DNA of 64,000 nucleotides, taken from positions 49,928-113,927 of the IMG/VR virus record IMGVR_UViG_3300045988_177018; one strand, written 5' to 3'. This stretch comes from a virus. Below the pieces are notes generated by a model, which did not search any database, was not told the DNA's origin, and worked only from the letters and a program-made list of their open reading frames with translations. Below, one piece after another: positions 2,070-53,800 of the stretch (within the stretch, counting starts at the first letter, position 1; each line of letters opens with the position of its first letter). Position numbers and translations under genes: made by a program.

Positions 2070-2840
2070 TCAGTGGAATGGTTCGAATGGGATGCTGAAC
2101 ACCATATCGTAAAGGTCTTCCACATCGCCCGCAGCGGTTTGCGCGTCGGAGAGAATCTGCTGCGGCTCCCTTTCCTCTCCCCAAAGGTCGAACAGGTCGG
2201 CAACCGTATCCACCTCCCGTTCGCTTTGACTGTTGATTGCGAATCCCAACAGTCGGCCACGGTTGAGGTCGGACAATGGTTTGCTGATTTCCCTAGACCA
2301 TTCGCAAGCTGTCTTCCACGCGTCGTCGTCCATCGTGTAATCGCCGTCCACGCCATAGGTGAGCAGGTTTCCAGCGGTGTCCTCCTGCGCGACGTCGTGA
2401 ATGACGAACATGTATTCGATGGCGAGCAGGTATTCATCCAGACTGATTTCGTCGGCGTCCCAAACATGGTTCGACGGGAAATGCAGGTAGGGGTATCGGT
2501 TCACGGTCTCGTTGCCGATTTTGTCTCCCTCATGGAGCAATGCCACAGGAAGCGTGAAAATAGGGGACAGGTATACTCTTCCCTCGACGCCGCCATGCTG
2601 GTCGGTCTCCGGAATGGCGATAATCTGCTTCATCGAATTGACGATACGGTTCACATACTTGGTGGGTTTCTCCAACAGCAACGGTCTGCCGCTGGAGAAA
2701 CCTTGGAAAGCCATGACGTCATATTTCTCCACCACTGGCGTGGTATCGAACTTCGGTGGGGACAACGGGGTCATGTTCGGCTCGTCCCTCTTTTTGCTGG
2801 GGGTCGGACGGTTCTCGCCGAAGAAATCCTTATAGCTCAC
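2070..2840 (-). CDS. Hypothetical protein, translationally coupled to the VirB4-like gene
   Basis: 256-aa ORF with ordinary composition. Its start overlaps the stop of the upstream ATPase gene by 4 nt. Confidence 0.5.
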   Translation of the reverse strand: MSYKDFFGENRPTPSKKRDEPNMTPLSPPKFDTTPVVEKYDVMAFQGFSSGRPLLLEKPTKYVNRIVNSMKQIIAIPETDQHGGVEGRVYLSPIFTLPVALLHEGDKIGNETVNRYPYLHFPSNHVWDADEISLDEYLLAIEYMFVIHDVAQEDTAGNLLTYGVDGDYTMDDDAWKTACEWSREISKPLSDLNRGRLLGFAINSQSEREVDTVADLFDLWGEEREPQQILSDAQTAAGDVEDLYDMVFSIPFEPFH

Positions 2841-5497
2841 TGTTCTTGTCCTTCCTGCGTTTCAAACGCTTGCATTGCTTTCTTCTTCTCCTCTTCACGA
2901 CGAATCTTGTCGGTCGCCGTCGTGGAGATTTCCTTCAACAGGTCCGGTGGGATGATGACCTCGACGGGTACGGGCTGTTTGCTGGAATCCTTGAAATAGG
3001 CGATGGCACCGCGAATGGTCTTGTCTTTGCCGGTCTCCTTGTCTTTGACGCGCAGACGCCTCATACCAGACCAGTTCGGGTCGTCATTCTCCTTCGTGTC
3101 GCCCATGCTCATACGGGAGCGGATACGATTGCCGGAATCCTCAATCTGCAACAGCTGCAATGCGTCTCGCGCCGGAGAATCCTGAATCGGGTCGTCCAAT
3201 GCCAGCAGAAACGCTCGACCGATACCGCCTGTCATGCCCGCGTTGATGAACTCCTTGACCTTCTGCGAGGCGAACACCGGAGTGAAACGGCGGGAACGTG
3301 CGGTACGCATCCACTCGTTCACCTTGGCGGCACCCTTGTCCTCGCCCAGAATCGCCCAAGCCTCGTCGATTCCGACCATGCCGTCTCGTTCGCTCACCGC
3401 AGCACCGGCTCCGAACACAATCATGCGGAGAACCCAACGTTGGATACGTCCGGTGACGGTGTTCTCGGCACCTCGTTCCGGAATCATGGAACGGTCGCCC
3501 GCGTTGATGAGGGTCAAGTTCTGGCTGACTCGCAACGGGGTCACATTGTCGTTGGTGCCGAAGATGAGCCTCAATGATTGGTTGGTGTTGACGCTCATCG
3601 TAACCATTTTGAACACTTTCAACGTGTCCGGATACAGATCGTATTTGGACGGGTCATCGCCCGCCTGTTGGAGTGCGCGGAAGTCCGTCGCGGCCTTGTA
3701 AAGCATCGTTCCGCAGCAACGACCGCCTCTCTTGCACCCGTAATCCAGCATCGCCTTGACGGTCAACTCGTAGGAGGTGTCGCCGTCCGGTTTGAGGATG
3801 TCGGAAATCATGATGGCGGCCATATCCTTGGCCTCCTCCTCACTGCGGAGCACGTTGTACGGGTCGAAAGTGCCATCGGCGATGTCGGAATCCATTCTGA
3901 GCACGGTACCGTTGCGGGACAGCACCGCATCCTCGAAATCGTTGCCCTCCTTCGGATTGACGAGGATGCAGGGCGTCTTGCCTTTGCCGCTACGCGAGTC
4001 AATCAGCATCCACTGCAAAAACAGGCTCACCAGCAGCATGGACTTGCCGGAGCCGGTCTCGCCAATGACCAGAATGCCCGGTCGCGTGTCCTTGTCCTGC
4101 ACCGTCGTGGTGCCCACATACACGGGCTGCCGGTTCGCTTCCGTCAATCCGACCAACGCGCCCGTCTCGTCACCGGCCTTGGCGAAACTACTCACGCCGC
4201 CCCCGGCCACGCAGGTCGCCGACCAGTGAATCTCATAAGGTGTCATACGGACAGGCGAACACGCCTGCATGCTTTTGAACGCCATCAACTGCTCGTTGGC
4301 GGTGGTCAGATTCGTGAACTCGAAGTTCTGGATGTTCTGCAACGAGTCAACGGCCATCTGCGCGTTACCGGCCACACAGGCGGCCACGCTCAAATCAATG
4401 ATGCTCGGCGGCATTTCCGGCGAATTGTAGATGGCTTTCTTATAGTCCAACCGATATTTCAAATCGGTCATGTCGGCGGACGCCTCACGCCCATGCTGGT
4501 AACGCTCCTTGATGTTCTCGTCAATCGTGCGGGCGTTACGGCGAATCGTGTCGGCGGTCACCTTGCCGGGTTCGACCTTGCCCCGGATGGACGTTCCTAC
4601 AGCGTTCGCCCCACCGGCAGTGGCGACTTCCATCAATTTCGCAATCCAAAGATTGGACGGGTCGGTGATGTCCGATTGGGCGAATTGGGTGGTTCTGGCG
4701 AAGCAGATTGACGCCGGATACTCACTGTCGATGTTCCACTGGTCGCAGTCGATTCCCTCATCGTACAGGCGTTTCGCGTTCTGGCAGACCTTGCTGTTGG
4801 GGAAGAAATGCAGATGGTCGTTCTCGGCGATGATGGGAAGGGCAGACGCGGAAGCTCGGCTCACCCACCATGTCTCCATCATCGCGACCAGCTGTTCCCG
4901 TTCGCTTTCCTCCATGACGGTGAAAGGTATGAGACCGGCGTTCAGCATGATGCGTTCGATACGGTGCGCGTCAGGCAGGTATTCCTCAAACATGGCGTAA
5001 CCGTTCGCCATAGAGAAGCTGAGCTGGTTGAATTTCGTGGTGGCTCTGCGTAGGAGGGATTGTTTGCGTCCCTTCCTTCCGTCCTCGCCGCCCAGTTTCA
5101 ACGGAACCCCGATTACGGCGAACTGCTTGCACACGTTCAGATTACGGTAATAGTACGCCTGATAGCTTTTCAAATCATCCTGCTGCATGACCGGCGGACG
5201 GTAGGGGATGGGCATGGAGCCGGTCAGCAGGTGGAATTCTCTGTATTCGCTTTTCAGAATGTCACGGTATCTCATGCCAGCCACGCTGACCTCACCGGCC
5301 AACCCGTCGAAGAACGCCATGAAACCCTGTTCGGCTTCCTTGCGTTTCGAATCACCGGCACCGTCCAACAGTGCGCTCGTCCAAGGAATCTTCGCGTACA
5401 GCCATACAGTCCTGTCCGGCGTGGCCGCTCGAAGCAGACCGTATTCACTGCCGGGACTAATGAAGCTTTCCGGACGATAGAAACCGTCTCTTGCCAT
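2837..5497 (-). CDS. Conjugal transfer ATPase, VirB4/TrsE/TcpF family
   Basis: 886 aa. Walker A VIGETGSGKSML. Walker B-like IDEAWAILG. Size and motif order typical of VirB4. Confidence 0.8.
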   Translation of the reverse strand: MARDGFYRPESFISPGSEYGLLRAATPDRTVWLYAKIPWTSALLDGAGDSKRKEAEQGFMAFFDGLAGEVSVAGMRYRDILKSEYREFHLLTGSMPIPYRPPVMQQDDLKSYQAYYYRNLNVCKQFAVIGVPLKLGGEDGRKGRKQSLLRRATTKFNQLSFSMANGYAMFEEYLPDAHRIERIMLNAGLIPFTVMEESEREQLVAMMETWWVSRASASALPIIAENDHLHFFPNSKVCQNAKRLYDEGIDCDQWNIDSEYPASICFARTTQFAQSDITDPSNLWIAKLMEVATAGGANAVGTSIRGKVEPGKVTADTIRRNARTIDENIKERYQHGREASADMTDLKYRLDYKKAIYNSPEMPPSIIDLSVAACVAGNAQMAVDSLQNIQNFEFTNLTTANEQLMAFKSMQACSPVRMTPYEIHWSATCVAGGGVSSFAKAGDETGALVGLTEANRQPVYVGTTTVQDKDTRPGILVIGETGSGKSMLLVSLFLQWMLIDSRSGKGKTPCILVNPKEGNDFEDAVLSRNGTVLRMDSDIADGTFDPYNVLRSEEEAKDMAAIMISDILKPDGDTSYELTVKAMLDYGCKRGGRCCGTMLYKAATDFRALQQAGDDPSKYDLYPDTLKVFKMVTMSVNTNQSLRLIFGTNDNVTPLRVSQNLTLINAGDRSMIPERGAENTVTGRIQRWVLRMIVFGAGAAVSERDGMVGIDEAWAILGEDKGAAKVNEWMRTARSRRFTPVFASQKVKEFINAGMTGGIGRAFLLALDDPIQDSPARDALQLLQIEDSGNRIRSRMSMGDTKENDDPNWSGMRRLRVKDKETGKDKTIRGAIAYFKDSSKQPVPVEVIIPPDLLKEISTTATDKIRREEEKKKAMQAFETQEGQEQ

Positions 5498-5871: not shown

Positions 5872-7046
5872 TCCAGTCCGAAGTATTCCAGCGGGTCGAA
5901 GTCCATGCTCATATACTTGCCGGGATTGTCGTCTTCGACCGGCTTGGCCGGTTTGAACGGCTTGTCGATGGGCTTCTCACCTTTTTGCTTCAGTCCGGAA
6001 TAAGCCAATCGTCTCACGGTCTTGTCTGAATCGTGGGACAGCTTTCTCAACGTATCCACGGAGGCGTTTGAGTTCACGGCGATGGCACGCTTCACATGCG
6101 GACTCCACTGGTTCGACATGTACTCCAACGTATCGGGAGTCGTGTTGGGATTACCCGCCACGTTGACGCGGGTCTGAGTCCAATCGTCGTAGGCCAAAAA
6201 GCTCAACGTAGCCGATGACGCATGGGGGTTGAACGCCACCTGCTCGCGGATAGCGCTATCCTCGCTGGAGGCCAGCCGGTGCAAATCCTTCTGGGACGTA
6301 TGCTCATGCTCCGCGATGTTTCGTTGAGTCTCGTAATCGTCCACGCGAAGACATTCGTGAAGCGTATCGGCGTCGGTCTGCCAATTGCCGGACGCGGCAC
6401 GGATGATTTTCGTCATGTCATCAGTCACGGCACCCGCCTTATGGGAGGTTGGTTCCAAAGCGTCATTCACGGCTTTTCGAATCTGTTCGGAACTCAAATC
6501 CGAACGTTTCAACGTTTCCGCACGGACGATGGCCTCATTATCGTTCAACAGTCTTTCCGTCACGTTTTTCGGAGTATGGGGATTGCCCGCCACGGCACCG
6601 CGAACCTTCCACGACTCGTCGGACGAGAGAACGTCCAGCGTGTGCGCGTCCTCGGTGTTGCGGGCCACCGCATTGCGGATTTGTGGATTGTCGTCGAACC
6701 GGCATACGTTCAACGCGGTATCGTCGGCACCGCGTTCGATTGCCGTGCAGCGAACCTTGGTGTCGTATCTGACCGATTGTTGCTCGTAATTGTACCTGTT
6801 CTCCCGCTTGTCTTTTGGCGGTTCGCCGTTCGCATTCGGGTAGGTCTCGTCCTCGTCGAATGGATGGTTGAACCCGTATTCGGTAGTGGCGAGATTGTTC
6901 AGCACGGCGGTAGGTGTCCTATCATCCAAGGCCATGTTCTCCAAATCGACCGTACTGGTTTTGGAGACGACATCCTCAATCGAAGCGCCGCCATGTTCTT
7001 TAAACCATTTGCCCAGCGGGTCTCTTGCTTGTAAAGGATTGTACAT
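5865..7046 (-). CDS. Leucine-rich-repeat-variant / HEAT-like repeat protein (paralog A)
   Basis: 393 aa with repeated VRxxAAxNPxT..TLxxL units. GGAGG SD. N-terminus RDPLGKWFKEHGG shared with the next gene. Confidence 0.65.
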   Translation of the reverse strand: MYNPLQARDPLGKWFKEHGGASIEDVVSKTSTVDLENMALDDRTPTAVLNNLATTEYGFNHPFDEDETYPNANGEPPKDKRENRYNYEQQSVRYDTKVRCTAIERGADDTALNVCRFDDNPQIRNAVARNTEDAHTLDVLSSDESWKVRGAVAGNPHTPKNVTERLLNDNEAIVRAETLKRSDLSSEQIRKAVNDALEPTSHKAGAVTDDMTKIIRAASGNWQTDADTLHECLRVDDYETQRNIAEHEHTSQKDLHRLASSEDSAIREQVAFNPHASSATLSFLAYDDWTQTRVNVAGNPNTTPDTLEYMSNQWSPHVKRAIAVNSNASVDTLRKLSHDSDKTVRRLAYSGLKQKGEKPIDKPFKPAKPVEDDNPGKYMSMDFDPLEYFGLDD

Positions 7047-7063
7047 TCCTCCTCCAATTTCTT

Positions 7064-8287
7064 TTAGTATTCGAATTGGATATCGTCGTATCCGCTATCG
7101 TCGTTGAAATCGACTCCCGCGTATTCGTCCGAAAGCCTTTGATTCTCACGGCAATGTTCAAGATTCATGACGGCCCTACGGCTGACTTTCTCGTCCTTGT
7201 CTTCGCTTAGCGTCTCCAACGTGTGAAAGCTGGTGTTCGGATTGCCCGCCACATGAAGTCTCGTCTCTGAGTCCTTCGACTGGGAGAGCCTGTCGAGCCT
7301 GTCCGGCACCGTGCAGTGTTCCGCCATGGGGCGGGTGCTGATGGTGTTGGTCATGTCGAAACGGTTCAGTATGCCCTGCGCCGACGAATCGTAGCCTAGC
7401 TTATGGAGTTTTTCGCACTGCTCGGACGAGGCGTGGTAGAGGAACTGGTCGGCCAATTTCGTCTCCGCGTCGATAGCCATGGCGGGGCATTTCATCCTGC
7501 CTTTGCTAAGGGGGAAGGTGGTTCCCGCCCTGCCGTCCGTCCATTTGCTGTGACCGGCCTCGAAGATTTGCAAGGCTGCGTCGTAGTCGCCGTTCCTAGC
7601 CGCCTCCGTGGCTATCTCCGACGCGTACGCGTCGCAGACATGCAGTTTCTCGTTGGTCTCGATATAGTCGTTGTAACCGTCCTGCCACGGTAACGGCATG
7701 GGGTCTCTCACATCGTCGTAGTCCATAAGCTCTTCGAGCCTCAGTGTTTGATGGTATCTGTTCTGCACGAGCAGGACGCTGGGATTACCGTAATCGCCTT
7801 CCTTGCAGTATTCCAGCGAACGGTTCCGACACCATGCCATGAGAGCGTAGTCGGCAATGTCCTTGTCGGCGTCGCCTTCGAGCCGTTCCAGAGTGTTGGT
7901 CGGGGTGTTGCGGTTGAGGGCCACGGCACGTTTCACATAGAAGTTGTCATCGTCCGCCATCATGTCGAGCGTCTTGCCGTCCAGTTTCGGATTGGACGCG
8001 ACTGCCGTGCGCTCCCTCACGTCGTCGCTGTACTTGAACGAGTCAAGCGTCTCGTCGCTGATGTTCGGGTTCATCAGCGCCTCCAGCCGGTTGTCCTCGT
8101 CTTTGCCGGTCTTGGCTATCTGGTCAATTACCGCTGTCGGCGTGTTTTTGGTATCGACAGCCGACTCATGCTCTTCCACATAGTTGAGATTTTTGACGTT
8201 ATCGGCAAGACTTGCCTTCGGATTGCCACCATGCGCTTTCATCCACTTGCCCAGCGGGTCGCGCGGTTCTGACGGACTGTATGCCAT
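7064..8287 (-). CDS. Leucine-rich-repeat-variant / HEAT-like repeat protein (paralog B)
   Basis: Same repeat architecture, with N-terminal PRDPLGKWMKAHGG. Start set at the second Met (GGAGG 7 nt upstream); the ORF extends to 8317. Confidence 0.65.
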   Translation of the reverse strand: MAYSPSEPRDPLGKWMKAHGGNPKASLADNVKNLNYVEEHESAVDTKNTPTAVIDQIAKTGKDEDNRLEALMNPNISDETLDSFKYSDDVRERTAVASNPKLDGKTLDMMADDDNFYVKRAVALNRNTPTNTLERLEGDADKDIADYALMAWCRNRSLEYCKEGDYGNPSVLLVQNRYHQTLRLEELMDYDDVRDPMPLPWQDGYNDYIETNEKLHVCDAYASEIATEAARNGDYDAALQIFEAGHSKWTDGRAGTTFPLSKGRMKCPAMAIDAETKLADQFLYHASSEQCEKLHKLGYDSSAQGILNRFDMTNTISTRPMAEHCTVPDRLDRLSQSKDSETRLHVAGNPNTSFHTLETLSEDKDEKVSRRAVMNLEHCRENQRLSDEYAGVDFNDDSGYDDIQFEY

Positions 8288-32757: not shown

Positions 32758-34137
32758 CTACTCGGCGTCCTGCATGGACTTTCCGGCGGCATGTCCGGCG
32801 ACCATGCTGTTCAGCAACGCTTTCAGGTCGATGCCTAAGGATTGAGACAATCCCTCACTCAACTGGCTCACACTGTTCACCGTGTCGCCCACGAGCTTCG
32901 TGTTGTTTCCGTCGCCGTACATGGTGATGTGGTCAACCTTGGTGAGCGGTTCGGCGGCGGCTCGAATCATGTCGGGGAGAATCTGAATGTACTGTTGGGC
33001 GAGGATGTACGTGTTGTTCATCGCATTGTAGGCTTGGCCTTGGGCGCGGATTGCCTCGGCTTCGCCGACACCCTTCGCCTGTGCGGCGGAACCCTCGGCC
33101 TTGCCTTTGACCTCGGTCGCGTGTGCGTCCGCGTCGGCTGTGGATTGGATGGCCTGAGCCTCCTGCTGGCGTAGGTACAGTTCCGCGTCGGCGTGTTTTT
33201 GGGTTGTGTACATTTGCGCGTCGGCCTGCTGTTCGGCGGCGTAACGGTCGGCGTCGGCCTTCTTGCAGATGGTCGCGTTCAGTTTTTGCTCTTCGATTTC
33301 AGCGTTCTTCTGTTCGAGCACTGCCCTCTTCTCGGCGGCGGCGATTTCAGCCTCCTGCTCCTTGACCTTAAGGGTCTTGGACTGTTCGGCGCTGGTGATG
33401 CCCTTCACCGCGTCGGCCTCGGCTTGCGCCTTGTCAGCGATGGACTGGAGTTCCGCACGCTTCAGGTCGAGCTGGTTCTGGCGGACGGCCACATCCTGTT
33501 CCGCGTTGATGGACGCGAGTTTCGCGTTTCGGCTGATTTCCGCCGCCATCTCCGCGCCCATGTTGGCGATGACGCTTTGCCGGTCGGTGAAGTCCTGAAT
33601 GTTGAACGTGGTCAATTGCAGTCCGAGCCGTTCCATGTCCACACGCGCGGATTCGGCAACAGTTTCGGCAAATGTGTCCCTGTTCTCCATTAGTTCCTTC
33701 AACTCGGTCTTGCCGATGACCTCGCGAAGCTTACCTAGAAGCACCTGAGTGACGTCCTTCTCCATGCGCTCCTTGGACTGGTTGAGATAGTTCTTGGCGG
33801 CGTTCTCCAACGCTTTGACTTGTTTGCCGTTCTCGTCCACGGTCGTGGTTTCCGACGCTATCTGGAAGTTCGCCACGGCGTTCACGTCGATGAGGATGGC
33901 GTCCTTGGTAGGAATCGCCGTATCGGTTGACAGCAGGGATTGCACCGCGCCCAAGCTCAGCCAGTCCACGCGCATGATGAACGGGATGATGAACGCGCTT
34001 CCGCCTGAGACGAAGCGTCTTCCGCCCGGTCCGGTGATGACCATGACCTTGTTGGCGGGGCAGACCTTGTAGCTTGCGGTTGCGAGAAGTGCGACAAGTA
34101 CTACCGCTACCGCGCCGATAATGAGTGTTGTCGGCAT
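32758..34137 (-). CDS. Flotillin-like SPFH/band-7 membrane protein
   Basis: N-terminal TM, SPFH core, long Ala/Gln/Glu coiled coil. Confidence 0.7.
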   Translation of the reverse strand: MPTTLIIGAVAVVLVALLATASYKVCPANKVMVITGPGGRRFVSGGSAFIIPFIMRVDWLSLGAVQSLLSTDTAIPTKDAILIDVNAVANFQIASETTTVDENGKQVKALENAAKNYLNQSKERMEKDVTQVLLGKLREVIGKTELKELMENRDTFAETVAESARVDMERLGLQLTTFNIQDFTDRQSVIANMGAEMAAEISRNAKLASINAEQDVAVRQNQLDLKRAELQSIADKAQAEADAVKGITSAEQSKTLKVKEQEAEIAAAEKRAVLEQKNAEIEEQKLNATICKKADADRYAAEQQADAQMYTTQKHADAELYLRQQEAQAIQSTADADAHATEVKGKAEGSAAQAKGVGEAEAIRAQGQAYNAMNNTYILAQQYIQILPDMIRAAAEPLTKVDHITMYGDGNNTKLVGDTVNSVSQLSEGLSQSLGIDLKALLNSMVAGHAAGKSMQDAE

Positions 34138-42531: not shown

Positions 42532-43251
42532 TTAGATTTTCAGCTCGTCAATGACGGAAAGGTCAACTCCGTCACCCCAGTTATCGACAATCTTGCTCAG
42601 GTTCTTACGCATTCCGATGGGGGACTGGTCGTCAACCGGACGTCCGAAATTCTTCTCCGGAGCGACCGCGTTCAACACGGCGAACAGCAGGTTCGTCATA
42701 TCCTTGCCCTGCGCGAACACAAGCGTCACCTCCGCTGCAATCATGCCCGGCTCGGCGGTGGTCAATCCCTCCAAGGCGGACGTGAAATCGGAGATTCGGC
42801 GTTGGTTCTTCGGTTCGGTCAACGCGTCCAGCACGGCTTCCGGAGTGCTCTTCTTCGTGTCGGTCAACGCCTTGGCGAGGGCAATCACACGCTCATCATC
42901 CAACGATTTGATGAGGGGAATGAGCTTCTTTCCGAACTGTTCCTCGATATGCGGCATGGTTTTTTCACGAGGCTTACGGTTTGCACGAACCTTGGATTTG
43001 CCTTTCGGCTTGTCTTCCGTTTCGGTCGGCTCGTCAGTCGCGCCAACAGACTCATCGTCGGCTGGCGTCGGAGTCTCGGCTGCGGAATCCACGCCGTCCT
43101 GAACAAGCCCGGACACAGGCTGTTCCTCTTCGGCGGGAGACTGCTCCGGTTCGAAATAATTGCCGGAACCATAACCGTTGTTCTGCTCCGACTGTTGGTT
43201 GTTGTTGAAACCCCAATTGGTGAAGTCTGGCATCATACCTTCTTTCGTCAT
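42532..43251 (-). CDS. Hypothetical acidic protein
   Basis: 239-aa ORF, divergent from the operon starting at 44269. Confidence 0.45.
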   Translation of the reverse strand: MTKEGMMPDFTNWGFNNNQQSEQNNGYGSGNYFEPEQSPAEEEQPVSGLVQDGVDSAAETPTPADDESVGATDEPTETEDKPKGKSKVRANRKPREKTMPHIEEQFGKKLIPLIKSLDDERVIALAKALTDTKKSTPEAVLDALTEPKNQRRISDFTSALEGLTTAEPGMIAAEVTLVFAQGKDMTNLLFAVLNAVAPEKNFGRPVDDQSPIGMRKNLSKIVDNWGDGVDLSVIDELKI

Positions 43252-43524
43252 CCAGCGAACACTCCGGTCAGACAGGTTGTTAACAGTCGGAACGAGGTGT
43301 TCTGTATTTTCAATTTACGAGTGTAACGGCTTTCGCCATTCCAAAACAGAGAAAACGGGAAACAACCCTCCCTTCCAAGCCGGTAGGTTCCATCCGAAAA
43401 ACGGAACCAAGAGAAAGAGTCCGATGGCGGGAACGAAAAAACAGGAACGACGATTAGGGCATCGCCTGAAGAAGAACAGGGCAAGCCGTCCGCCGCGCCG
43501 GTAGGTCAGCATGAACAGCGGACT

Positions 43525-44265
43525 TCAAAAAAAGAGAGAAGAAACCACACTGAAAACAAAAATCCAAGAACACCATGCCATCAAAAAGAAGAACCAAGAA
43601 AAACAGAAAAGAAGAACCAAAAGAATAAAACCCGATAGGAAGAAGAGACCACATCAGAAGAAAAGAAGACAGCAACGACACAATCAAGAAAGAACACCGG
43701 TACAAGAGAAAAAAGAACAGAGGACAACGGCAGAACAAGAAGAACAATCCATACCGTAAATCAGGACACGACGTAACTAAAGAACCAAACGCAGAGCAAC
43801 CAGCCACCACAAGACAACAGGACAAGCGCATACGACCCAGCAGAGAAGAAAAGCAACAGCACCAAACACTCGAAGAGCATAAAGCGACAAACAAAAGAAC
43901 CACAAGGCAACAGGACGCAACAGACAAAAGCCCACACAGAAGAACAGACTGCAAAAACACTCGACAGCAAAAACGCAAACAGCAGAAGCCACGCCACATA
44001 AGACGGCAACAAACCCAGAGAAGAAAGAACCGGCACGCCAGCAACCACATCACAATCACAACAACGCCCCACACGGCCAACCAGACAACAAAAAGGTCAA
44101 TAGTCACACCAACAAGGTCAACAACAAACAAAACAAGGTAACATCAATACAGGAACAGCCAATGCAATGAAAAAGCAACAGCAGAACCAACCAAAAAACC
44201 AAATATCAAAAACTATAAATGCCAGAACTTGGACAAAACCGTGAACGTTCCGATGAAAACAACGG
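43525..44265 (+). other. About 0.74-kb T-depleted (A/C/G-only-like) tract on the top strand; non-coding
   Basis: By inspection T is far under 10% and A about half of bases on the top strand. ORFs in it are stop-codon-free artefacts. Confidence 0.7.
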
Positions 44266-44268
44266 AAC

Positions 44269-45483
44269 ATGACCCATCAGGAGGCGGTCTTATTGGAAAA
44301 ACGGACGATTTCCCTGATAATCGGCTCCGGAGGGCTACTTACGACCATTAAAAAAGCCCTCACAAGAGTCGGAAACATGCGCTGGCAGGTGCCCGCCGCA
44401 GACAACATCCAAGCTCAGGCCGACTATCTGGTCAGACACCCGGTGCCATCCGGGTTCAAAGGAATCATCTTCACCGACAGAGCAGGAAACTGGCTTCCGA
44501 TAGCGAACGCCGGTTATATCGTCTACTGGTGCGACACGGGGCAGATACCCGTGGGAGCCATGGGCATGAGCGAGCAGATGCTACGGATGAGTGTGGCTGA
44601 TTTCGCTCACGCGTATTGGGGAATCCAACTTGCCGACAAGCGTCTTGTGGTCGATATTCTCCAAAACAAAGTGAAGGAGACTGCGGTTCTCCTGCCCATC
44701 ACATCCAATACCGGAGGCGTCGGGAAAACCACCTCCAGCAGACAGCTGGCTGACCGTGCGTCACAGGCCGGACTGCGTGTCCTGCTCATCGACGGCAACA
44801 TTCGACAGTCCAGCCAACGTAGCTTCTTCGACCCGAAACAGGACAAGCCGTTGCATACGATAGCGGACTGGCGACCGGGCATGCAGGCGCAGGTCGGAGC
44901 CAATCGCGGACGCAATCTCGGAGTCCCATACGACATCTGCTTCGCACCTCCGGCAGGTATCGGAGTGGACTGGCAGATATACCGTCAGTACATTCAGGCG
45001 GCTAGGCGGTTATGGGATTTCGTGGTGCTCGACCTCGACCGAATCAGTGCGGACGACTTGGACGACAGGGAGAACATAGCCAACGGTCTGCTTCTCCCGT
45101 ATATTCAGTCTGGCGACCCTTGTCTGGTCATCGTCAAGGCCGGAAGACAGACGCAGATTGACGCGTTGAATCTGCTGACTGCGATGGCGGAGCATCATCT
45201 TCCGAAGGAACTCATCGGAATCAAAGACACGGTTCCGGTCGGACTGCAAGACTATCGGCGACTCGACTACACGCGGTACGGAACGTTCCTCGGAACCGAA
45301 TACCAGACGGTGGAGGCGAGCAACCATATCGCCAACGGTGATGTCCGATGGGATGACCCCGGGCTTGCCTTCGCACGGGAGAACATTCTCAACTGGGCGT
45401 TGCCCGACCGTGGCTTCAATCCTGACAGGTTCAATCCGAACGCGAACGACGATGACAGAAGGAAAGGTCGTGGACGCAGATGA
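44269..45483 (+). CDS. ParA/MinD-like P-loop ATPase domain protein (VirC1-like candidate)
   Basis: Deviant Walker A TSNTGGVGKTTSS in the middle of a 404-aa protein. First gene after the T-depleted tract. Confidence 0.5.
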   Translation: MTHQEAVLLEKRTISLIIGSGGLLTTIKKALTRVGNMRWQVPAADNIQAQADYLVRHPVPSGFKGIIFTDRAGNWLPIANAGYIVYWCDTGQIPVGAMGMSEQMLRMSVADFAHAYWGIQLADKRLVVDILQNKVKETAVLLPITSNTGGVGKTTSSRQLADRASQAGLRVLLIDGNIRQSSQRSFFDPKQDKPLHTIADWRPGMQAQVGANRGRNLGVPYDICFAPPAGIGVDWQIYRQYIQAARRLWDFVVLDLDRISADDLDDRENIANGLLLPYIQSGDPCLVIVKAGRQTQIDALNLLTAMAEHHLPKELIGIKDTVPVGLQDYRRLDYTRYGTFLGTEYQTVEASNHIANGDVRWDDPGLAFARENILNWALPDRGFNPDRFNPNANDDDRRKGRGRR

Positions 45484-46676
45484 CTTTCGATGACCGGTAC
45501 CTGTTTGACCCGAACGACGAGAATCTTTGGAAGACTGGAAGCATTGCCGACTGGTATAAAGGCAACGACATGTACGAAATGGAGCATCCCGGACTGTTCG
45601 CGCAAACGCACCCGTGGTTCGTAGCCAATAAACTGTTCGCGGAGACGATGGTCAAAGCGAACAGTGAACTCGTGTCAAGCATCCTTGGCGCTTTGTTCAC
45701 ATGGAAGACCTGCACGGTTGACCAGTTGCGTGCGGGACTTTCCATCAAAGGCGCTCCCGCTTTCGAACGTGAAGAGCCGAACCTGTATGGGGCGATGAAC
45801 CGTTTGGGAATCATCAACGTCGGTTTCAGTCAAGCGGAACGCCTTTACGGCAAAACCGTGAACCATGTTTGGCTGTCCCCATCGAACAGTCCACGACTCA
45901 TCAACCGTGCGATGAAAACGTATGGCATGGAGAAGTGGATGCGTGAGACGATGGCAGCTTCCTATTATGCGGGGAACCGTTTCCATGTACGCCATAACAC
46001 CTATGCGGCGCACGTGGGATTGATGCTGGCCCGCGACTCCCGCGTCAGGTTTTCCTCCGGCGACGGTTGGGGAAAATTCCGTAGCGTTGACCCACAGGCG
46101 GTTGCCGAGTCGAAAGTCGGCAAGGCGTGCGCGACCGACGTGGTCACATTGTGCCGCAACAACGTGCTTGCTGGTATCGAAATCCAAACGTCGAACAGCG
46201 AATTGGACAGGAAGATGCAGAACTGGGCGAAGATGCTCGCCTACTCTCCGATGAAACGTCGCGGTCTCATCTGCGTATGGTTGCAGATACCCAAAGCGAA
46301 CGAAGGGTATGAATCGTTCAACGCGGTGGTGCAGCGTACTCAGGGCATGACGGAAATGGTCGTAGGTAATCCGACCGTTTCGCAAAGAATGGGAGTCGCG
46401 GTCTGGGATGAATGGTTCGAGCATGGTGTTCCGACCGGCAGTTTCGGAGACTACACGGACATGAGTGGAATTCGCCGCAACATTTTCTCCGACGAGTGGA
46501 CGCAATACACTCCGCAGGTTCGTGACGTTCGCAAAGTCAGCGAATGGGGTTGGGATGTGACGCGTGACATCATAAAAAAGGATTGGGGTTGGGATGTTTC
46601 CGGTTGGACGATGCCGGAAGCATACCGTGGCGGCTTCTACGGTTTCATCGGAAAGGATTGTGATGGCCTCCACTGA
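45480..46676 (+). CDS. Hypothetical protein (candidate relaxase-like / DNA-processing protein)
   Basis: 398 aa. His cluster FHVRHNTYAAH. Sits between the ParA-like gene and the T4CP gene. Confidence 0.3.
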   Translation: MTFDDRYLFDPNDENLWKTGSIADWYKGNDMYEMEHPGLFAQTHPWFVANKLFAETMVKANSELVSSILGALFTWKTCTVDQLRAGLSIKGAPAFEREEPNLYGAMNRLGIINVGFSQAERLYGKTVNHVWLSPSNSPRLINRAMKTYGMEKWMRETMAASYYAGNRFHVRHNTYAAHVGLMLARDSRVRFSSGDGWGKFRSVDPQAVAESKVGKACATDVVTLCRNNVLAGIEIQTSNSELDRKMQNWAKMLAYSPMKRRGLICVWLQIPKANEGYESFNAVVQRTQGMTEMVVGNPTVSQRMGVAVWDEWFEHGVPTGSFGDYTDMSGIRRNIFSDEWTQYTPQVRDVRKVSEWGWDVTRDIIKKDWGWDVSGWTMPEAYRGGFYGFIGKDCDGLH

Positions 46677-50822: not shown

Positions 50823-53800
50823 ATACAAAATATCGAGACCCAGTGAGACGGGCTGGCGGAAGGAACCTGCTCGTCATTCTGATGTTGTGCATGGTCATGA
50901 CATTGTTCGTATTACCTGACAGCGTGTTCGCCGCGCCGTCCGACGGTTCGATAACGACGGCGACATGCGCCAACGGTGGGACGGGTGGTGCGACGTCGGA
51001 CATCGCAAGCTGTCTTCCTTCCGGACGTTGGGGAAACTATGTAGGCGAAATCATTTCGCGTACCGAACCGTACAGTGGCAGTGACGTCGCGGGCTGGTTC
51101 TCCAATGTCAAGCAGACCATCAATTCGCAGATGCATGTCGTTCTTCCCAACGTTCTGATGCAGTTGACTCAGGTCTGCTGGTCATCCGCATTGTCCATCA
51201 GCCAGTTCGCCGCTTCGTTCGAACCGATGAAACAGGCTGGCGCGAACATTGACTCCGCAGTGGCCACTCTGGTAACGAGTCTGATGAACGGAGGGATTCC
51301 CGCCACCATCGCAGTGCTGGGCATCGTCGCTTGGGTTGGCGCGGCCGGATTCCAAATCGGCACCGTCAAAGAGGCAAGCAAACGAATCATCATCATGGTT
51401 CTCTGCTTCGCTTCAATCACGATACTTGGCACGGGAGCCGCGAAAACGGGGAGAAACGCCACGGAACCTGCGACCGGAAGCCCATGGTGGGTCGTGCAGA
51501 CCATCAACAACACCATCAACAAACTGTCGGTCAATCTTGACCTTGACGGCATGGCCGACGGCGATAAGAATATGATGTCCTATTACCATAGCGGCGATGG
51601 AGCAAAAACCAACTGTCAGGACTACCTGTACTACATGCATCAGGCGTATGACGAACAGGCCGCATCCTATGGCAATCAGGATACGAGCAACATCACCAAG
51701 GCCATCAACCGTATTTGGGAGGAGACGTCTCTTCGCTCGTGGGTGACCATGCAGTATGGAAACCCGCAGGCCACCGGAACATCCTCGTTCCGAATCGCGG
51801 AGAACGCGCGGCAGGGATACTGCCACGTGTTGGAAATGAAAGCCAATACGAACACCACCATCCAAAAGGATTTGACCAACAAGGCCATGTCGTTGCATAT
51901 CAGCGACCAGAGGGCTAAATGGCTGTTCTCTGTAGACGGTTGGGTTGACCCTCGTCACCCTTACTTCACCGACAAGCCGTTGGAAAGGGAGAATGCGACG
52001 TATCTCAGCCGTGCGGGAGTGTTCTGGGAGACATGCGGAACGAAACGCAATCAGGAAATCTACGCACGTTCCGGCTGGGCCACGCTCATCAACAATCTTG
52101 GCGATGCGGGAACCAAGGACATAAAGAACGGCAGCACGAAGGTACGTGTCAAGATTAACGACTTGGACAATGTGAAACCGACTAACGGTGGCACGGGGTT
52201 GATGGACGCCAAACAGAGCGGAACCGAAGCCGAGACCATTCAACAGACCACATCGGTCTGCCAGACGATTCTCAAACAGGATTCCGCAATCTTCGCCCGT
52301 AGCTCCGACATCGACAAGAATGATGACGGCGGTTACAAAGACCAGCAGAACAACACCAATTGGGGTGATTCCGCAACGGTCGGCTGGCGTTTCGACGTGC
52401 CGAACGTTTCCGGAACTTGGAGCGAAGCCAATCTTCGTGACGCTCAGGATGATTCCACCGTCACAGGCGGCGCGAAGAAAACCCTCGACTACATGTACGG
52501 GAACAACAACGTTGACACGTTGGGGGCTTGCGGAAGTCTCCTTGGCGGCATCGTCAATCTTGTGGTCTGGGGATTGTTGAGCCTTGTCCTCATCCTGACG
52601 AAGCTCATGCTGATAATGATGGCTTTGTTCCTCGTGGTCACGTTCCTCATCCAAGCGTTCCCTATAGGCGAGAAGCCGAAGAAGGCGTTGAAGAATTGGA
52701 CCGCATACACATGCCAGTTGAGTATGGTCGGCGCATTGTATGGAGCGTTGGGCGCTCTCGCCACGTTCATCTGCGGTCTGACGTTGAAGTTCACGTCCGC
52801 CAGTAGCGGCTCGTTCACCTACCAGCTGATTGCGGGGGTGAGCCCGCTGCTGGCCTTCGCGTCCATAAGCATGTTCTGCTCAAAGGTGCTGAAGTGGGGT
52901 AATCCGTTCAGCATCAACGCCCTCATGGGCATGGCCGGAGGAACCGCCATGGCTTCCGGCATCCGCACCGGCATGCGCATGATTGGACAGCACCGTATGA
53001 TGCAAGCCATGCGTGGCGGCTTCCGTCGCGGAGGCGATGGTGCCGGACGCTTGTCCACGAACGGTACCGGCGCTGGCATGGCGCATAGCGGAGCACGTCA
53101 GAGCGCGACCGTCCTGAGCAAGATGAGCCGCGCACAGCAGGAGGCGTTGTCCAACGGCGACAGGAACCTGCTGAACCGTAGTCAGAGCGAATTCGAAGCG
53201 CTCCAATCCCACGGACGCAAGAGCAGGACGTGGGCAAGAATGGACGCCAACACGGTGAGGGGAAGTCTCGCCGGTGCTCGACTCCACATGGAAGAGTCCC
53301 ACGACAAGTTCCGGCAACGGTTGAACACCGCCGCCTCCAAGTTCAAGGGAGCGGACAACACTGAAGCGTTCGCGCATCGTATCGCGCAACGTCATCCGGG
53401 CATGTCTCTCGACAAGGTTCAGCGTAGGGCGGAGATGATGAATCATCTGAACAATGCTGGACGTGCGCTTCAAGGTGCGGCCAGAGTCGCAGGGGCGGGT
53501 GCCGCAATGGGCGGAGCCGGTCTCGCGTTCGCCGTACGCGCAGCGAAGAGCGCTCCTTTGCGTAATGTCGCCGCACGCGGTGCGAAGGTAGCGGCTAAGG
53601 CCGCCGTCACCGGAGCTTTGTTCTCCAATCCGATTACCGCACCGTTGGGATTGGTCGCAGCCGGAAAGCTGGCCGCCGACCGTAACCTGCATCATGGTCT
53701 AGCGGTGGGTGCGGGAGCCGCGATGGACAAAATCCGCGACATCAGGAACGCCGCTCCCGGCAGTGTGAGGGAACGCGACCAGTGGCGTCGCAACGTGTTG

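Follow-up and report, generated by a model that had tools for sequence, protein, structure and literature searches.

The locus analysed here raises the question of why the DNA in front of a plasmid transfer operon should be almost devoid of T on one strand over several hundred nucleotides, and whether it is this composition or a particular sequence that matters to the plasmid. The DNA examined (the window, 64 kb in all) is related to pMP7017, a conjugative megaplasmid of Bifidobacterium. This plasmid was called the first conjugative plasmid characterised in Bifidobacterium, and megaplasmids of its type were found in ~10% of mined gut microbiome samples, mostly from infants and mothers (Dineen et al., 2024; PMC10832533). 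Plasmids of this family are nevertheless typed by MOB classification as ‘non-mobilizable’, with no known relaxase or oriT recognised, so an unrecognised relaxase and oriT must lie somewhere on a plasmid that does conjugate. In the available pMP7017 papers the oriT, the relaxase, the regulation of the transfer genes and the intergenic region that holds the tract are all undescribed.

The genes on either side of the tract define its setting (Table 1). The first gene of the rightward operon encodes a ParA/MinD-superfamily ATPase for which 47 homologues were found, in searches whose protein clusters hold hundreds to thousands of members, and which also gives weak NCBIfam matches to ParA, MinD and BY-kinase proteins; when the N-termini of these homologues are aligned, its true start is possibly the TTG at 44293, behind the Shine-Dalgarno sequence GGAGG at 44280-44284. 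The second gene product belongs to a family of 20 members, none of which has a match in Pfam or NCBIfam, and its fold makes it a candidate for a non-canonical, MOBC-like relaxase; its residues D220, E234, Q236 and K245 are invariant. The type IV coupling protein (T4CP) is matched in tblastn searches by the ‘type IV secretory system conjugative DNA transfer family protein’ of Arthrobacter and Curtobacterium plasmids, and by homologous genes in pMP7017 and the B. longum megaplasmids. An 886-aa ORF at 2837-5497, considered as a second T4CP, was ruled out because it encodes an AAA_10 (VirB4-like) ATPase. The gene upstream of the tract is without a match in Pfam and NCBIfam searches, and its homologues in the relatives (215-266 aa) occupy the same position on the minus strand. 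A preliminary description of this DNA had placed the tract ahead of a ParA-like/T4CP operon, between a minus-strand gene starting at 43251 and a ParA-like ORF starting at 44269; the gene identities and, with the proviso about the TTG start, the gene limits agree with it.

Table 1. Features of the intergenic control region and the genes that flank it (window coordinates; strand given where one applies).
Feature	Position	Strand	Remarks
Upstream gene, 239 aa	42532..43251	-	ORF; transcribed away from tract; kept in all relatives
5' flank, ordinary T-containing	43252..43345	.	TGTAAC at 43319-43324
Boundary module, two copies	43379..43506	+	Direct repeat GCCGGTAGGT at 43379-43388 and 43497-43506
Palindrome P1	43387..43407	.	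GTTCC-N11-GGAAC
T-depleted, A-rich tract, whole	43389-44213 (825 nt)	+	A 49%, C 26%, G 19%, T 6%
Variable core	43525..44085	+	Composition held, sequence free; approximately synonymous rate, frequent indels
Proximal block	44085..44268	+	Strongly conserved; three direct repeats, -10-like TAACAT, CTATAAAT
Direct repeats AAGGT(C)AA	44093-44101, 44114-44122, 44135-44143	+	21-nt spacing
-10-like TAACAT	44139-44144	+	Within proximal block
Palindrome P2	44247..44268	.	GTTCCG-N10-CGGAAC; abuts ATG 44269
ParA/MinD-superfamily ATPase, 404 aa	44269..45483	+	Operon gene 1; Pfam CbiA/AAA_31
Winged-helix (wHTH) + PD-(D/E)xK nuclease-fold protein, 398 aa	45480..46676	+	
T4CP, membrane ATPase, 886 aa	47121..49781	+	tblastn

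The composition of the tract is extreme for this DNA. Over 43525-44265 (741 nt) the top strand contains 378 A (51.0%), 191 C (25.8%), 128 G (17.3%) and only 44 T (5.9%), or about one T per 17 nt, as the earlier estimate of an isolated T every 15-20 nt had it. Across the window T averages 23.3% (sd 5.7% in 300-nt windows), and the lowest value of all 300-nt windows, 2.7%, falls within the tract, so that near-absence of T is borne out at both 100- and 300-nt resolution against an ordinary frequency of ~20%. When limits are set by 100-nt windows with T <= 8%, the tract runs from 43389 to 44213 and reaches further 5' than the interval first described. It contains only two TT dinucleotides, its purine content (A+G) is 68%, and the GC content of the region is 35-50% compared with 55% for the window. 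It is by far the longest run of its kind in the window, the runner-up being 265 nt long and situated in coding sequence. As initially suggested, the tract is also no simple tandem repeat, since TRF reports only a weak 48-nt AAAAAGAA array with 69% matching; a repeat search for tandem head-to-tail units returned only scattered two-copy families, while k-mer counts of the core show GAAGAA and AAGAA to be ~2-3-fold over-represented, a form of cryptic simplicity, and GCAAC to be over-represented as well.

Other T-poor or A-poor stretches occur in the window at 29.0, 29.8, 33.0 and 47.8 kb. The pair at 29 kb is part of coding sequence whose translation reads as membrane segments, the stretch at 33.0 kb is inside the minus-strand ORF 32758-34137, and that at 47.8 kb is the membrane part of the T4CP gene. 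Outside the window, the gene for a homologous T4CP on an Arthrobacter plasmid is preceded by an unannotated gap of 1.6 kb, but this contains only a modest T-poor part and was not convincing as the same feature.

One consequence of this composition is that the plus strand of the tract is the least foldable RNA segment of the window. Its predicted minimum free energies (MFE) per 200 nt are -4.8, -11.3 and -13.7 kcal/mol, compared with a window mean of -61.7 (sd 11.6), and the 561-nt core as a whole reaches only -37 kcal/mol, in keeping with the earlier proposal that a strand of this kind is unable to pair with itself. The MFE does not stand out from that of shuffled versions of the same sequence (z = +0.47), so the unfoldability stems from composition alone. 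Both strands are likewise unstructured as single-stranded DNA.

The tract is set between elements that are conserved in sequence. The 5' flank is near-identical between the window and the relative L004, even though divergence at fourfold sites in the flanking genes is 25-40% in this comparison; the plus strand switches from T-rich to T-poor at ~43340, and the TGTAAC motif near this switch, which lacks the usual final T, is also found in L007 and L010. Next comes a boundary module in which the first copy of GCCGGTAGGT is followed by palindrome P1 and an A-rich stretch, and the second by a degenerate version that closes with GCGGAC and a run of A. In L004, L005, L007 and L012 the T-poor core follows elements in the same order (a GC-rich block, CCGGT(R)G, GCGGAC or GGAAC, and an A-run), variants of the module can be recognised in L001, L002, L011 and L013, and one copy has been lost by a 104-nt deletion in L022, L023 and L031. 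At the other end, the proximal block is near-identical between the window and L004 despite a fourfold-site difference of ~36%, and it shows ~1 substitution per 50 columns among 14 clade-B variants; its segment GTAAYATCAAnAnAnGAACAG is also kept in pMP7017 and the B. longum plasmids. The block is probably a promoter/operator and/or a relaxosome binding region. The motif AAGGTMAAY of its direct repeats has five matches in the window (1.45 expected), and GTTCC-N11-GGAAC has four (0.81 expected), two of which bracket the tract as P1 and P2, with shared half-sites ~860 bp apart. P1 is not palindromic in several relatives, and in L007 both arms are changed, to GGGTCC/GGACCC, at its position. In pMP7017, B. 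longum and L011, P2 survives in the form TTCCG-N10..12-CGGAA; its half-sites are conserved in sequence and do not covary, so a protein-binding site fits better than an RNA stem.

Between these elements it is the composition that persists. A T-poor, A-rich stretch stands before the homologous operon, in the sense orientation of that operon, in each of the 11 diverse relatives, which have ParA-like proteins with 44-95% identity to that of the window. Over the whole intergenic region T amounts to 7-14% in seven of the 11 and to 13-19% in the four most distant, and it is 6.9-9.1% in 17 close variants; in pMP7017 (190 kb), where it lies at ~52,650-53,300 of the record, the tract is the sole non-coding stretch of such a kind. 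The core itself does not align between the window and L004. Among closer sequences, the intergenic stretch that includes it is 96% identical to L024 and 90% identical to L016, and the fourfold-site divergence in these comparisons is 6-11%, close to the ~10% of the intergenic region in L016. Indels in the core are of the slippage type and span 1-104 nt, with one 83-nt deletion between direct repeats, and length ranges from 682 to 887 nt among variants; core length varies about three-fold, and the tract measures 0.2-0.8 kb across relatives. A nucleotide search of the tract against plasmids returned no match, probably owing to low-complexity masking, and megablast of 10 kb gave only one 536-nt match.

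Neither the neighbouring genes nor recent changes share this bias. In same-strand genes next to the tract, fourfold sites contain 10-18% A and 16-25% T, and minor-allele substitutions comprise 26 gains and 11 losses of T and 55 losses and 32 gains of A; the per-site rates of C-to-T (0.052) and G-to-A (0.093) change are less than two-fold apart. Because the core turns over at approximately the synonymous rate, differs so far in composition from fourfold sites, and receives substitutions that tend to erode its bias, the comparison indicates that selection keeps the base composition of the tract, and not its sequence, across the plasmid family.

Of the functions proposed in the preliminary description, an unstructured leader has the most support, and we tentatively read the tract, at not quite an even chance, as a leader or spacer of exceptional length, structure-free and U-poor, within the region that controls the transfer operon. 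On this account the tract, which is non-coding, would serve as a spacer among the cis-acting control elements of a Dtr operon (the ParA-like ATPase, the wHTH/PD-(D/E)xK protein and the T4CP), and the property kept would be an A-rich, nearly T(U)-free sense strand, which as a result lacks self-complementarity and U-runs and offers few start codons. Transcription, presumed to start near the 5' end and to run rightwards, would yield a 0.2-0.8 kb 5' leader that is free of structure and of intrinsic terminators and hands transcription on to the proximal block with its direct repeats, P2 and Shine-Dalgarno sequence, where regulation would take place. Such an unstructured RNA might serve for stability against U-dependent endonucleases, for entry of Rho or an RNA-binding regulator, or for spacing.

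The composition of known leaders in this plasmid family points the same way. Sequences behind the promoter motif published for the pMP7017 regulon (Dineen et al., 2024; PMC10832533) contain 47% A, 21% C, 22% G and 10% T, compared with 34% T in the 60 nt upstream of these promoters; the composition of the tract (Table 1) is essentially the same as that of the leaders, and its orientation is fixed in the relatives. Ordinary T-poor runs before start codons extend to 60-90 nt at most. Other observations weigh against a leader. A consensus scan revealed no σ70-like promoter at or upstream of the 5' boundary, its only match being inside the ParA-like gene and probably due to chance. The proximal block, by contrast, resembles a regulated promoter, with -10-like TAACAT/TAATAT elements and three direct repeats over the -35/-10 positions; if this were the only promoter of the operon, the core would lie upstream of the transcription start and there would be no leader. 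In addition, the pMP7017 transcriptome paper mentions no transcription or ncRNA at this locus, a role at the DNA level would be served equally well because both strands are unstructured, and a rationale for a leader of 0.2-0.8 kb is not established, which also counts against this reading.

The next possibility, which we regard as doubtful although better placed than those that follow, is a single-strand zone associated with oriT. Here the 398-aa protein would act as a relaxase that binds the direct repeats and/or P1 and P2 and nicks nearby, with the conserved GCCGGT(R)G at the 5' boundary as one candidate nick site, and the T-poor core would stay single-stranded, aiding the loading of helicase or SSB or forming the first or last segment of the T-strand. 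In favour of this are the makeup of the operon as a Dtr module with ATPase, candidate relaxase and T4CP, the need for an unrecognised relaxase and oriT set out above, the presence of the tract in a single copy per plasmid, as expected of an oriT, the palindromes with the same half-sites that bracket it, and the lack of structure in either strand. The 398-aa neighbour, moreover, has the PD-(D/E)xK fold by which MOBC relaxases are defined, and the three direct repeats spaced by 21 nt lie ~105-155 bp from P2; in the MOBC passages of a review, the five direct repeats to which the MOBC prototype TraX binds are placed 70-120 bp from nic (PMC12857230).

Several features argue against an oriT. The approximately three-fold variation in core length and the natural loss of one P1 copy would be poorly tolerated by the fixed geometry of a relaxosome, and a composition like that of mRNA leaders is not predicted. 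Transfer of the plus strand from a nick at the 5' boundary would also bring the operon into the recipient first, and it is unusual for transfer genes to be the first to enter. The more specific proposal, that the tract is the structure-free oriT zone of an unrecognised family of MOBC-like wHTH + PD-(D/E)xK relaxases in Bifidobacterium megaplasmids typed as non-mobilisable, is unlikely; such a relaxase would recognise the CCGG-containing boundary module and/or P1 and P2. If it were true, the T-free zone would represent a previously undescribed component of an oriT, compositional and independent of sequence, for loading or threading the nicked strand. The analysis in any case marks out a ~1-kb control region, the only one of its kind on the plasmid, whose conserved elements (the boundary module, both palindromes and the three direct repeats) are targets for mutagenesis, with the candidate relaxase adjoining.

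We consider it improbable that the core acts as untranscribed double-stranded DNA, be it a spacer that lets a repressor loop P1 to P2, an AT-rich pad for a nucleoid-associated or silencing protein that would hold the transfer operon off, or an insulator with both strands free of promoters, start codons and palindromes. The arrangement of P1 and P2 around the tract, the promoter-like character of the proximal block, the reduced GC content and the variation in length, which suits looping, are all consistent with such a role, as is the finding of no promoter-like site within the tract in the consensus scan, where a T-poor strand would leave little room for a -10 hexamer. A double-stranded function leaves unexplained, however, why the strand asymmetry is so strict and its orientation fixed in all relatives. 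AA, AAA and AAAA show no spectral peak at 10.5-11 nt in the tract, and without 10-11 bp phasing of A-tracts there is no signal of intrinsic curvature. Moreover, one P1 copy is naturally dispensable, and the site has lost its palindromic form in several relatives.

Less probable again, to the point of being very unlikely, is that the tract is neutral DNA shaped by a region-specific, strand-asymmetric mutation bias, such as deamination of a strand that is frequently single-stranded, together with slippage of A-rich simple sequence. Deamination of single-stranded DNA produces C-to-T and A-to-G changes, and the top strand is 77% A+C, leaving the bottom strand rich in G+T, which is the direction that both changes on the bottom strand would give. 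The synonymous-like turnover of the core, its many slippage-type indels and its cryptic simplicity can be read in the same sense. Against this, the recent substitutions described above oppose the composition, the C-to-T and G-to-A rates are less than two-fold apart, fourfold sites of neighbouring same-strand genes bear no resemblance to the tract in composition, and the orientation has persisted in relatives down to 44% ParA identity. The position of the locus relative to the pMP7017 origin and terminus also suggests that the sense strand is the leading strand, and the biases of replication and transcription would therefore be expected to enrich T rather than deplete it. The tract offers a clear bacterial case of non-coding DNA with a compositional constraint on one strand.

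That the tract is instead a gene is hardly credible, be it for a small, highly basic or disordered protein (the 82-aa plus-strand ORF at 43511-43759 is one example) or for hydrophobic products of the minus-strand ORFs (225, 103 and 71 aa), even though annotated calls fall within it in pMP7017 (WP_172685975.1), L014 (198 aa) and L009 (372 aa). The tract is non-coding: its period-3 spectral power is 0.35-1.9, whereas the ParA-like gene beside it reaches 7.5-15.7, every plus frame is interrupted by 6-8 stops across the intergenic region, and the frames are closed in the window and most relatives, with no open frame found to be shared among the 11. Variants with 90-96% identity differ by indels of 1, 3 and 8 nt, with frame-shifting ones inside the 82-aa ORF, and the long ORF in L009 goes together with the opening of all three frames and a TnpB remnant. 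Eight translations from both strands had no Pfam match at E <= 1, so the translated search for a hidden gene yielded no family in any frame, and Rfam covariance models gave none at E <= 1 on either strand of 42800-44700. The preliminary description had attributed the long ORFs to a composition poor in stops, and they are indeed artefacts of this kind, although each plus frame does carry stops. Its further statement that no real protein could be encoded is in line with the tests on this tract and too strong in principle, because T-poor DNA can encode hydrophilic, disordered, low-complexity proteins and T-poor coding stretches exist in pMP7017, in genes for surface proteins. The composition of the tract explains the spurious gene calls in public annotations of pMP7017-type plasmids.

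Two other early suggestions found no support. A sponge RNA is not indicated, since GGA (10 observed, 13.3 expected) and AGGA (7 observed, 7.5 expected) are not enriched and, as noted, the pMP7017 transcriptome paper reports no ncRNA. An overdrive-like enhancer fares no better. The sequence TGTTTGTT is the core of the Agrobacterium overdrive; it occurs once in the region, on the minus strand at 44123-44130, is at chance level (2 found in the window, 2.7 expected), and is not conserved in L004 or the closest clade. The Agrobacterium overdrive/VirC1 system does share with this locus a gene for a ParA-superfamily ATPase beside a non-coding, A/C-rich region near transfer genes, but overdrive is ~30-fold shorter than the tract.

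Comparison with other known systems helps to place the remaining readings. The oriT regions of MOBC systems (pAD1 TraX, CloDF13 MobC) resemble this locus in having a PD-(D/E)xK protein as neighbour and an intergenic site by the T4CP gene (PMC12857230). In addition, short direct repeats lie ~100-150 bp from an inverted repeat here, much as the TraX repeats lie near nic. The likeness is one of fold and layout, and the MOBC passages of that review make no mention of a long T-depleted tract (PMC12857230). Like rut regions, the tract is untranslated and unstructured and has more C than G over most of its 3' half; rut regions, however, are C-rich and G-poor, whereas the tract is purine-rich. With a C/G ratio that stays at 0.8-1.6 in most 80-nt windows and reaches 2.8 in a single one, the tract is atypical as a rut site, and its YC dinucleotides are as frequent as its composition predicts.

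The closest likeness in composition is to the leaders of the pMP7017 regulon, which belong to the same plasmid family, are sense-oriented and run up to the start codon (PMC10832533). These leaders are, however, 15-50 nt long and follow a recognisable extended -10 promoter, whereas the tract exceeds them 10-50-fold in length, shows no recognisable promoter where it starts and is present once per plasmid. The tract can also be compared with the leader of the pLS20 conjugation operon, which spans 456 nt and contains a zipper-type attenuator with a long stem, a terminator and an antiterminator (PMC13401043). A structured attenuator of this type is excluded for the tract, given the MFE of its core and its lack of U-runs, and the one terminator-like site on the plus strand (43288-43304) lies upstream of it in the T-containing 5' flank. 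The pLS20 leader and related leaders of Gram-positive conjugation operons nevertheless share with the tract a long non-coding stretch before the first gene of the operon on a large plasmid, and both are presumed to be regulatory checkpoints; the pLS20 leader acts through extensive RNA structure, whereas the tract would represent the opposite solution (PMC13401043).

The preliminary description of an intergenic tract almost devoid of T on the top strand was accurate, since only 44 bases of 43525-44265 are T (5.9%, ~1 per 17 nt), as opposed to 23.3% over the whole window, and the remainder comprises 378 A, 191 C and 128 G. A cut-off of T ≤ 8% in 100-nt windows gives the tract limits of 43389 and 44213 (825 nt, with a runner-up run of 265 nt) and places its left end ~135 nt further left than first proposed. 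These wider limits enclose only two TT dinucleotides, the AT skew is +0.6 to +0.93 throughout, and among all 300-nt windows of the 64 kb the T minimum (2.7%) falls here. Tandem repeat structure was looked for in the tract and not found, in agreement with the earlier account. Ordinary T-poor runs ahead of start codons reach at most 60-90 nt, and in the complete sequence of pMP7017 the tract is the sole non-coding, strand-asymmetric A/T-extreme stretch. In addition, GCAAC is more frequent than expected on the top strand of the cores of 10 relatives (33 observed vs 9.8 expected) and of window positions 43525-44213, the window's tract having 8 copies vs a background of ~1 per 825 nt in the rest of the window.

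In its coupling protein (T4CP), ParA-like protein and gene order, the window agrees with pMP7017, a conjugative megaplasmid of Bifidobacterium breve, and with megaplasmids of B. longum, and a 6.2-kb stretch identical to the window was found on a human-gut metagenome scaffold. A minus-strand 239-aa gene is followed by the tract and then by genes for a ParA/MinD-type ATPase of 404 aa, a protein of 398 aa, a small protein and the 886-aa T4CP. The transfer genes are split into distant modules, with over 38 kb separating a cell-wall hydrolase and a VirB4-like ATPase from the operon of the coupling protein. The annotated ATG of the ParA-like gene (44269) abuts palindrome P2, one of two that bracket the tract; because homologues begin ~8-14 residues later, and GGAGG (44280-44284) precedes an in-frame TTG within 44269-44295, this ATG may be false and the real start is probably TTG 44293.

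Features of the tract, its surroundings and related records (window positions unless stated)
Feature	Position	Strand	Description
Left flank	~90-130 nt next to upstream gene		conserved, ordinary composition
Boundary module	43379 and 43497		GC-rich block, CCGGT(R)G, palindrome or remnant ending GGAAC/GCGGAC, A-run; doubled in window (GCCGGTAGGT, copies 118 nt apart)
P1	43387-43407		GTTCC-N11-GGAAC
Variable T-poor core	43525-44085
Proximal block	44085-44268		strongly conserved; includes -10-like TAACAT and CTATAAAT
P2	44247-44268		GTTCCG-N10-CGGAAC; then GGAGG and probable TTG start 44293
398-aa protein	45480-46676	+	confident predicted structure: winged-helix domain plus PD-(D/E)xK nuclease fold
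Cell-wall hydrolase	130-1986	-	lysozyme, glucosaminidase and CHAP domains
AAA_10 (VirB4-like) ATPase	2837-5497	-
Promoter motif copies	9849, 11131, 25778, 27099, 27992, 29008, 30575, 31414, 32247	-
Promoter motif copies	38576, 61279	+
Terminator-like hairpins with T-runs	43357-43372, 43446-43466, 44029-44042	-	in the tract and at its left end
WP_172685975.1	pMP7017 record 53034-53309		public gene call inside tract
198-aa call	source scaffold (L014) 1686-2282		gene call inside tract
372-aa call	related locus L009, 2370-3488		gene call inside tract

Comparative analysis covered 11 diverse relatives (44-95% identity to the window in the ParA-like protein) and 26 further metagenomic loci found by a conserved 29-mer, which fall into two clades and represent 17 distinct close variants. 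In every one of them the intergenic region ahead of the ParA-like gene was T-poor on the operon sense strand (whole-intergenic T of 6.9-9.1% in the close variants, 7-14% in the seven diverse relatives nearest the window and 13-19% in the four furthest from it), and its layout of flank, boundary module, T-poor core and proximal block was constant. The proximal block contains three AAGGT(C)AA repeats at a spacing of exactly 21 nt. GTTCC-N8..14-GGAAC occurs 4 times in the window vs 0.81 expected, and two of the copies flank the tract. P2 is preserved as TTCCG-N10..12-CGGAA in pMP7017, B. longum and the related locus L011; since its half-sites are conserved in sequence and do not covary, P2 suits a putative protein-binding site. 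The intergenic region of L009 is unusually long (1240 nt) and C-rich; at ~2690-2760 it carries FQCAHCGHTGNADTNAA, recognised by eye, which we take to be the remnant of a TnpB (IS200/IS605-type) zinc-ribbon end, and such an insertion would explain the extra length. On the Arthrobacter sp. zg-Y1110 plasmid (L045), a doubtful counterpart is the 1.6-kb unannotated stretch (6460-8098) immediately before the gene for the homologous T4CP; its final ~500 nt are moderately T-poor (8-13%).

Within this constant layout the sequence turns over rapidly. The window and the variant L016 differ at 6-11% of fourfold sites in four flanking genes and at ~10% of the intergenic stretch containing the tract; against the relative L004, fourfold sites are 25-40% different and the core is no longer alignable, whereas the left flank is almost identical, as are the proximal 185 nt. 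The length between anchors is polymorphic (682-887 nt) owing to A-run slippage, 6-45-nt indels, a deletion of 83 nt between two copies of the repeat ACAACAGGAC (L016) and a 104-nt deletion shared by three variants (L022, L023 and L031). These natural deletions arise between short direct repeats, and the 104-nt one removes an entire boundary-module copy together with P1, so this copy is dispensable. Because the core diverges at about the fourfold rate and accumulates indels while the flanks stay nearly identical, the aligned sequences indicate that the core is effectively unconstrained and the flanks are under strong purifying selection.

The composition of the tract appears to be maintained in spite of this drift. 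Fourfold sites of same-strand neighbouring genes have 10-18% A, 16-25% T and 65-70% G+C, compared with 49-51% A and 6% T in the tract. Among ~120 substitutions between close variants, polarised on the assumption that the rarer allele is the derived one, there were 26 gains and 11 losses of T, and 55 losses and 32 gains of A (each contrast p ~0.02 by a normal approximation to the binomial, with crude polarisation and related sequences, so that the result is suggestive). Mutation thus appears to push against a composition that persists across the family, suggesting that it is kept by selection and is not a mutational equilibrium. From the published pMP7017 origin and terminus and the orientation of the locus, the sense strand is the leading strand, on which the usual replication and transcription asymmetries would be expected to enrich T, not deplete it.

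Strict strand asymmetry, fixed orientation relative to the operon and selection amid sequence drift point to a role for one strand, as RNA or as ssDNA. At least 11 copies of TATACTGGAAnnGTyCACA, the promoter motif mapped on pMP7017 by Dineen et al. (PMC10832533), are present in the window, each with T-rich sequence (34% T) before it and, after it, a short leader rich in A and nearly lacking T. From motif to start codon these leaders contain 47% A, 21% C, 22% G and 10% T, vs 49, 26, 19 and 6% in the tract, which thus has the composition of the plasmid family's mRNA leaders at 10-50 times their length. This resemblance favours, tentatively, a reading of the tract as a leader or spacer of the transfer operon that is long, poor in U and free of structure. 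Its sense-strand RNA is the least structured of the window (MFE per 200 nt of -4.8 to -13.7 kcal/mol vs a mean of -61.7, sd 11.6), entirely because of composition, as its z against its own shuffles is +0.47. Against a leader, the 5' boundary of the tract shows no recognisable promoter, and the proximal block itself looks like a regulated promoter. Leftward transcription of the tract would meet U-runs and rightward transcription none; the scanned region has 6 terminator-like hairpins, not above shuffles (3.7, sd 2.2). A CsrA-type form of the sponge RNA suggested earlier, a typical rut site and a pLS20-type structured attenuator were all unsupported, and no Rfam match was found in the tract region.

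The main rival, a single-strand zone belonging to oriT, is possible but rather doubtful; the complementary strand as ssDNA is nearly structure-free too. According to PMC12857230, relaxases of the MOBC family have the PD-(D/E)xK fold, and their prototype, TraX, attaches to direct repeats 70-120 bp from nic. The 398-aa protein has no family match, its gene lies between those for the ParA-like ATPase and the T4CP, and pMP7017-type plasmids are typed 'non-mobilizable' by MOB-suite although pMP7017 conjugates; from predicted fold and position, this protein is a reasonable candidate for their missing relaxase, in which case oriT could plausibly lie in the intergenic region. The overdrive-like enhancer proposed earlier was unsupported. 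A double-strand architectural role, which could draw on the flanking palindromes, is unlikely given the strand asymmetry; phased curvature was unsupported. That the tract is neutral junk, as the drifting core might suggest, is more improbable still in view of its persistent composition.

A coding gene is very improbable, and one inside the tract was rejected on its flat period-3 spectral power (0.35-1.9, noise level, vs 7.5-15.7 in the adjacent gene), 6-8 stops per plus frame of the intergenic region, absence of a reading frame common to relatives, 1-, 3- and 8-nt indels that fall within an 82-aa ORF in variants 90-96% identical to the window, and lack of a Pfam match for tract translations. 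The public gene calls on either strand failed all coding tests applied and are most likely annotation artefacts of a composition poor in stops, as had been anticipated for the long ORFs. The broader assertion that no real protein can be encoded fits this tract and is too general otherwise: T-poor DNA is able to specify hydrophilic proteins of low complexity, and in pMP7017 the genes for surface proteins contain kilobase-long T-poor coding stretches.

The tract, of which the pMP7017 literature examined makes no mention, is real, conserved and experimentally tractable, and its role is putative; as part of the non-coding region that would control a transfer operon, it is marked by an unusual constraint on composition that selection appears to maintain. 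It shares composition, but not length, with the short leaders of the pMP7017 regulon, and position with the long leaders of Gram-positive conjugation operons, whose structural character is the opposite. With MOBC-type oriTs, as PMC12857230 describes them, its locus may share a protein fold, predicted from a structural model, and a repeat arrangement.
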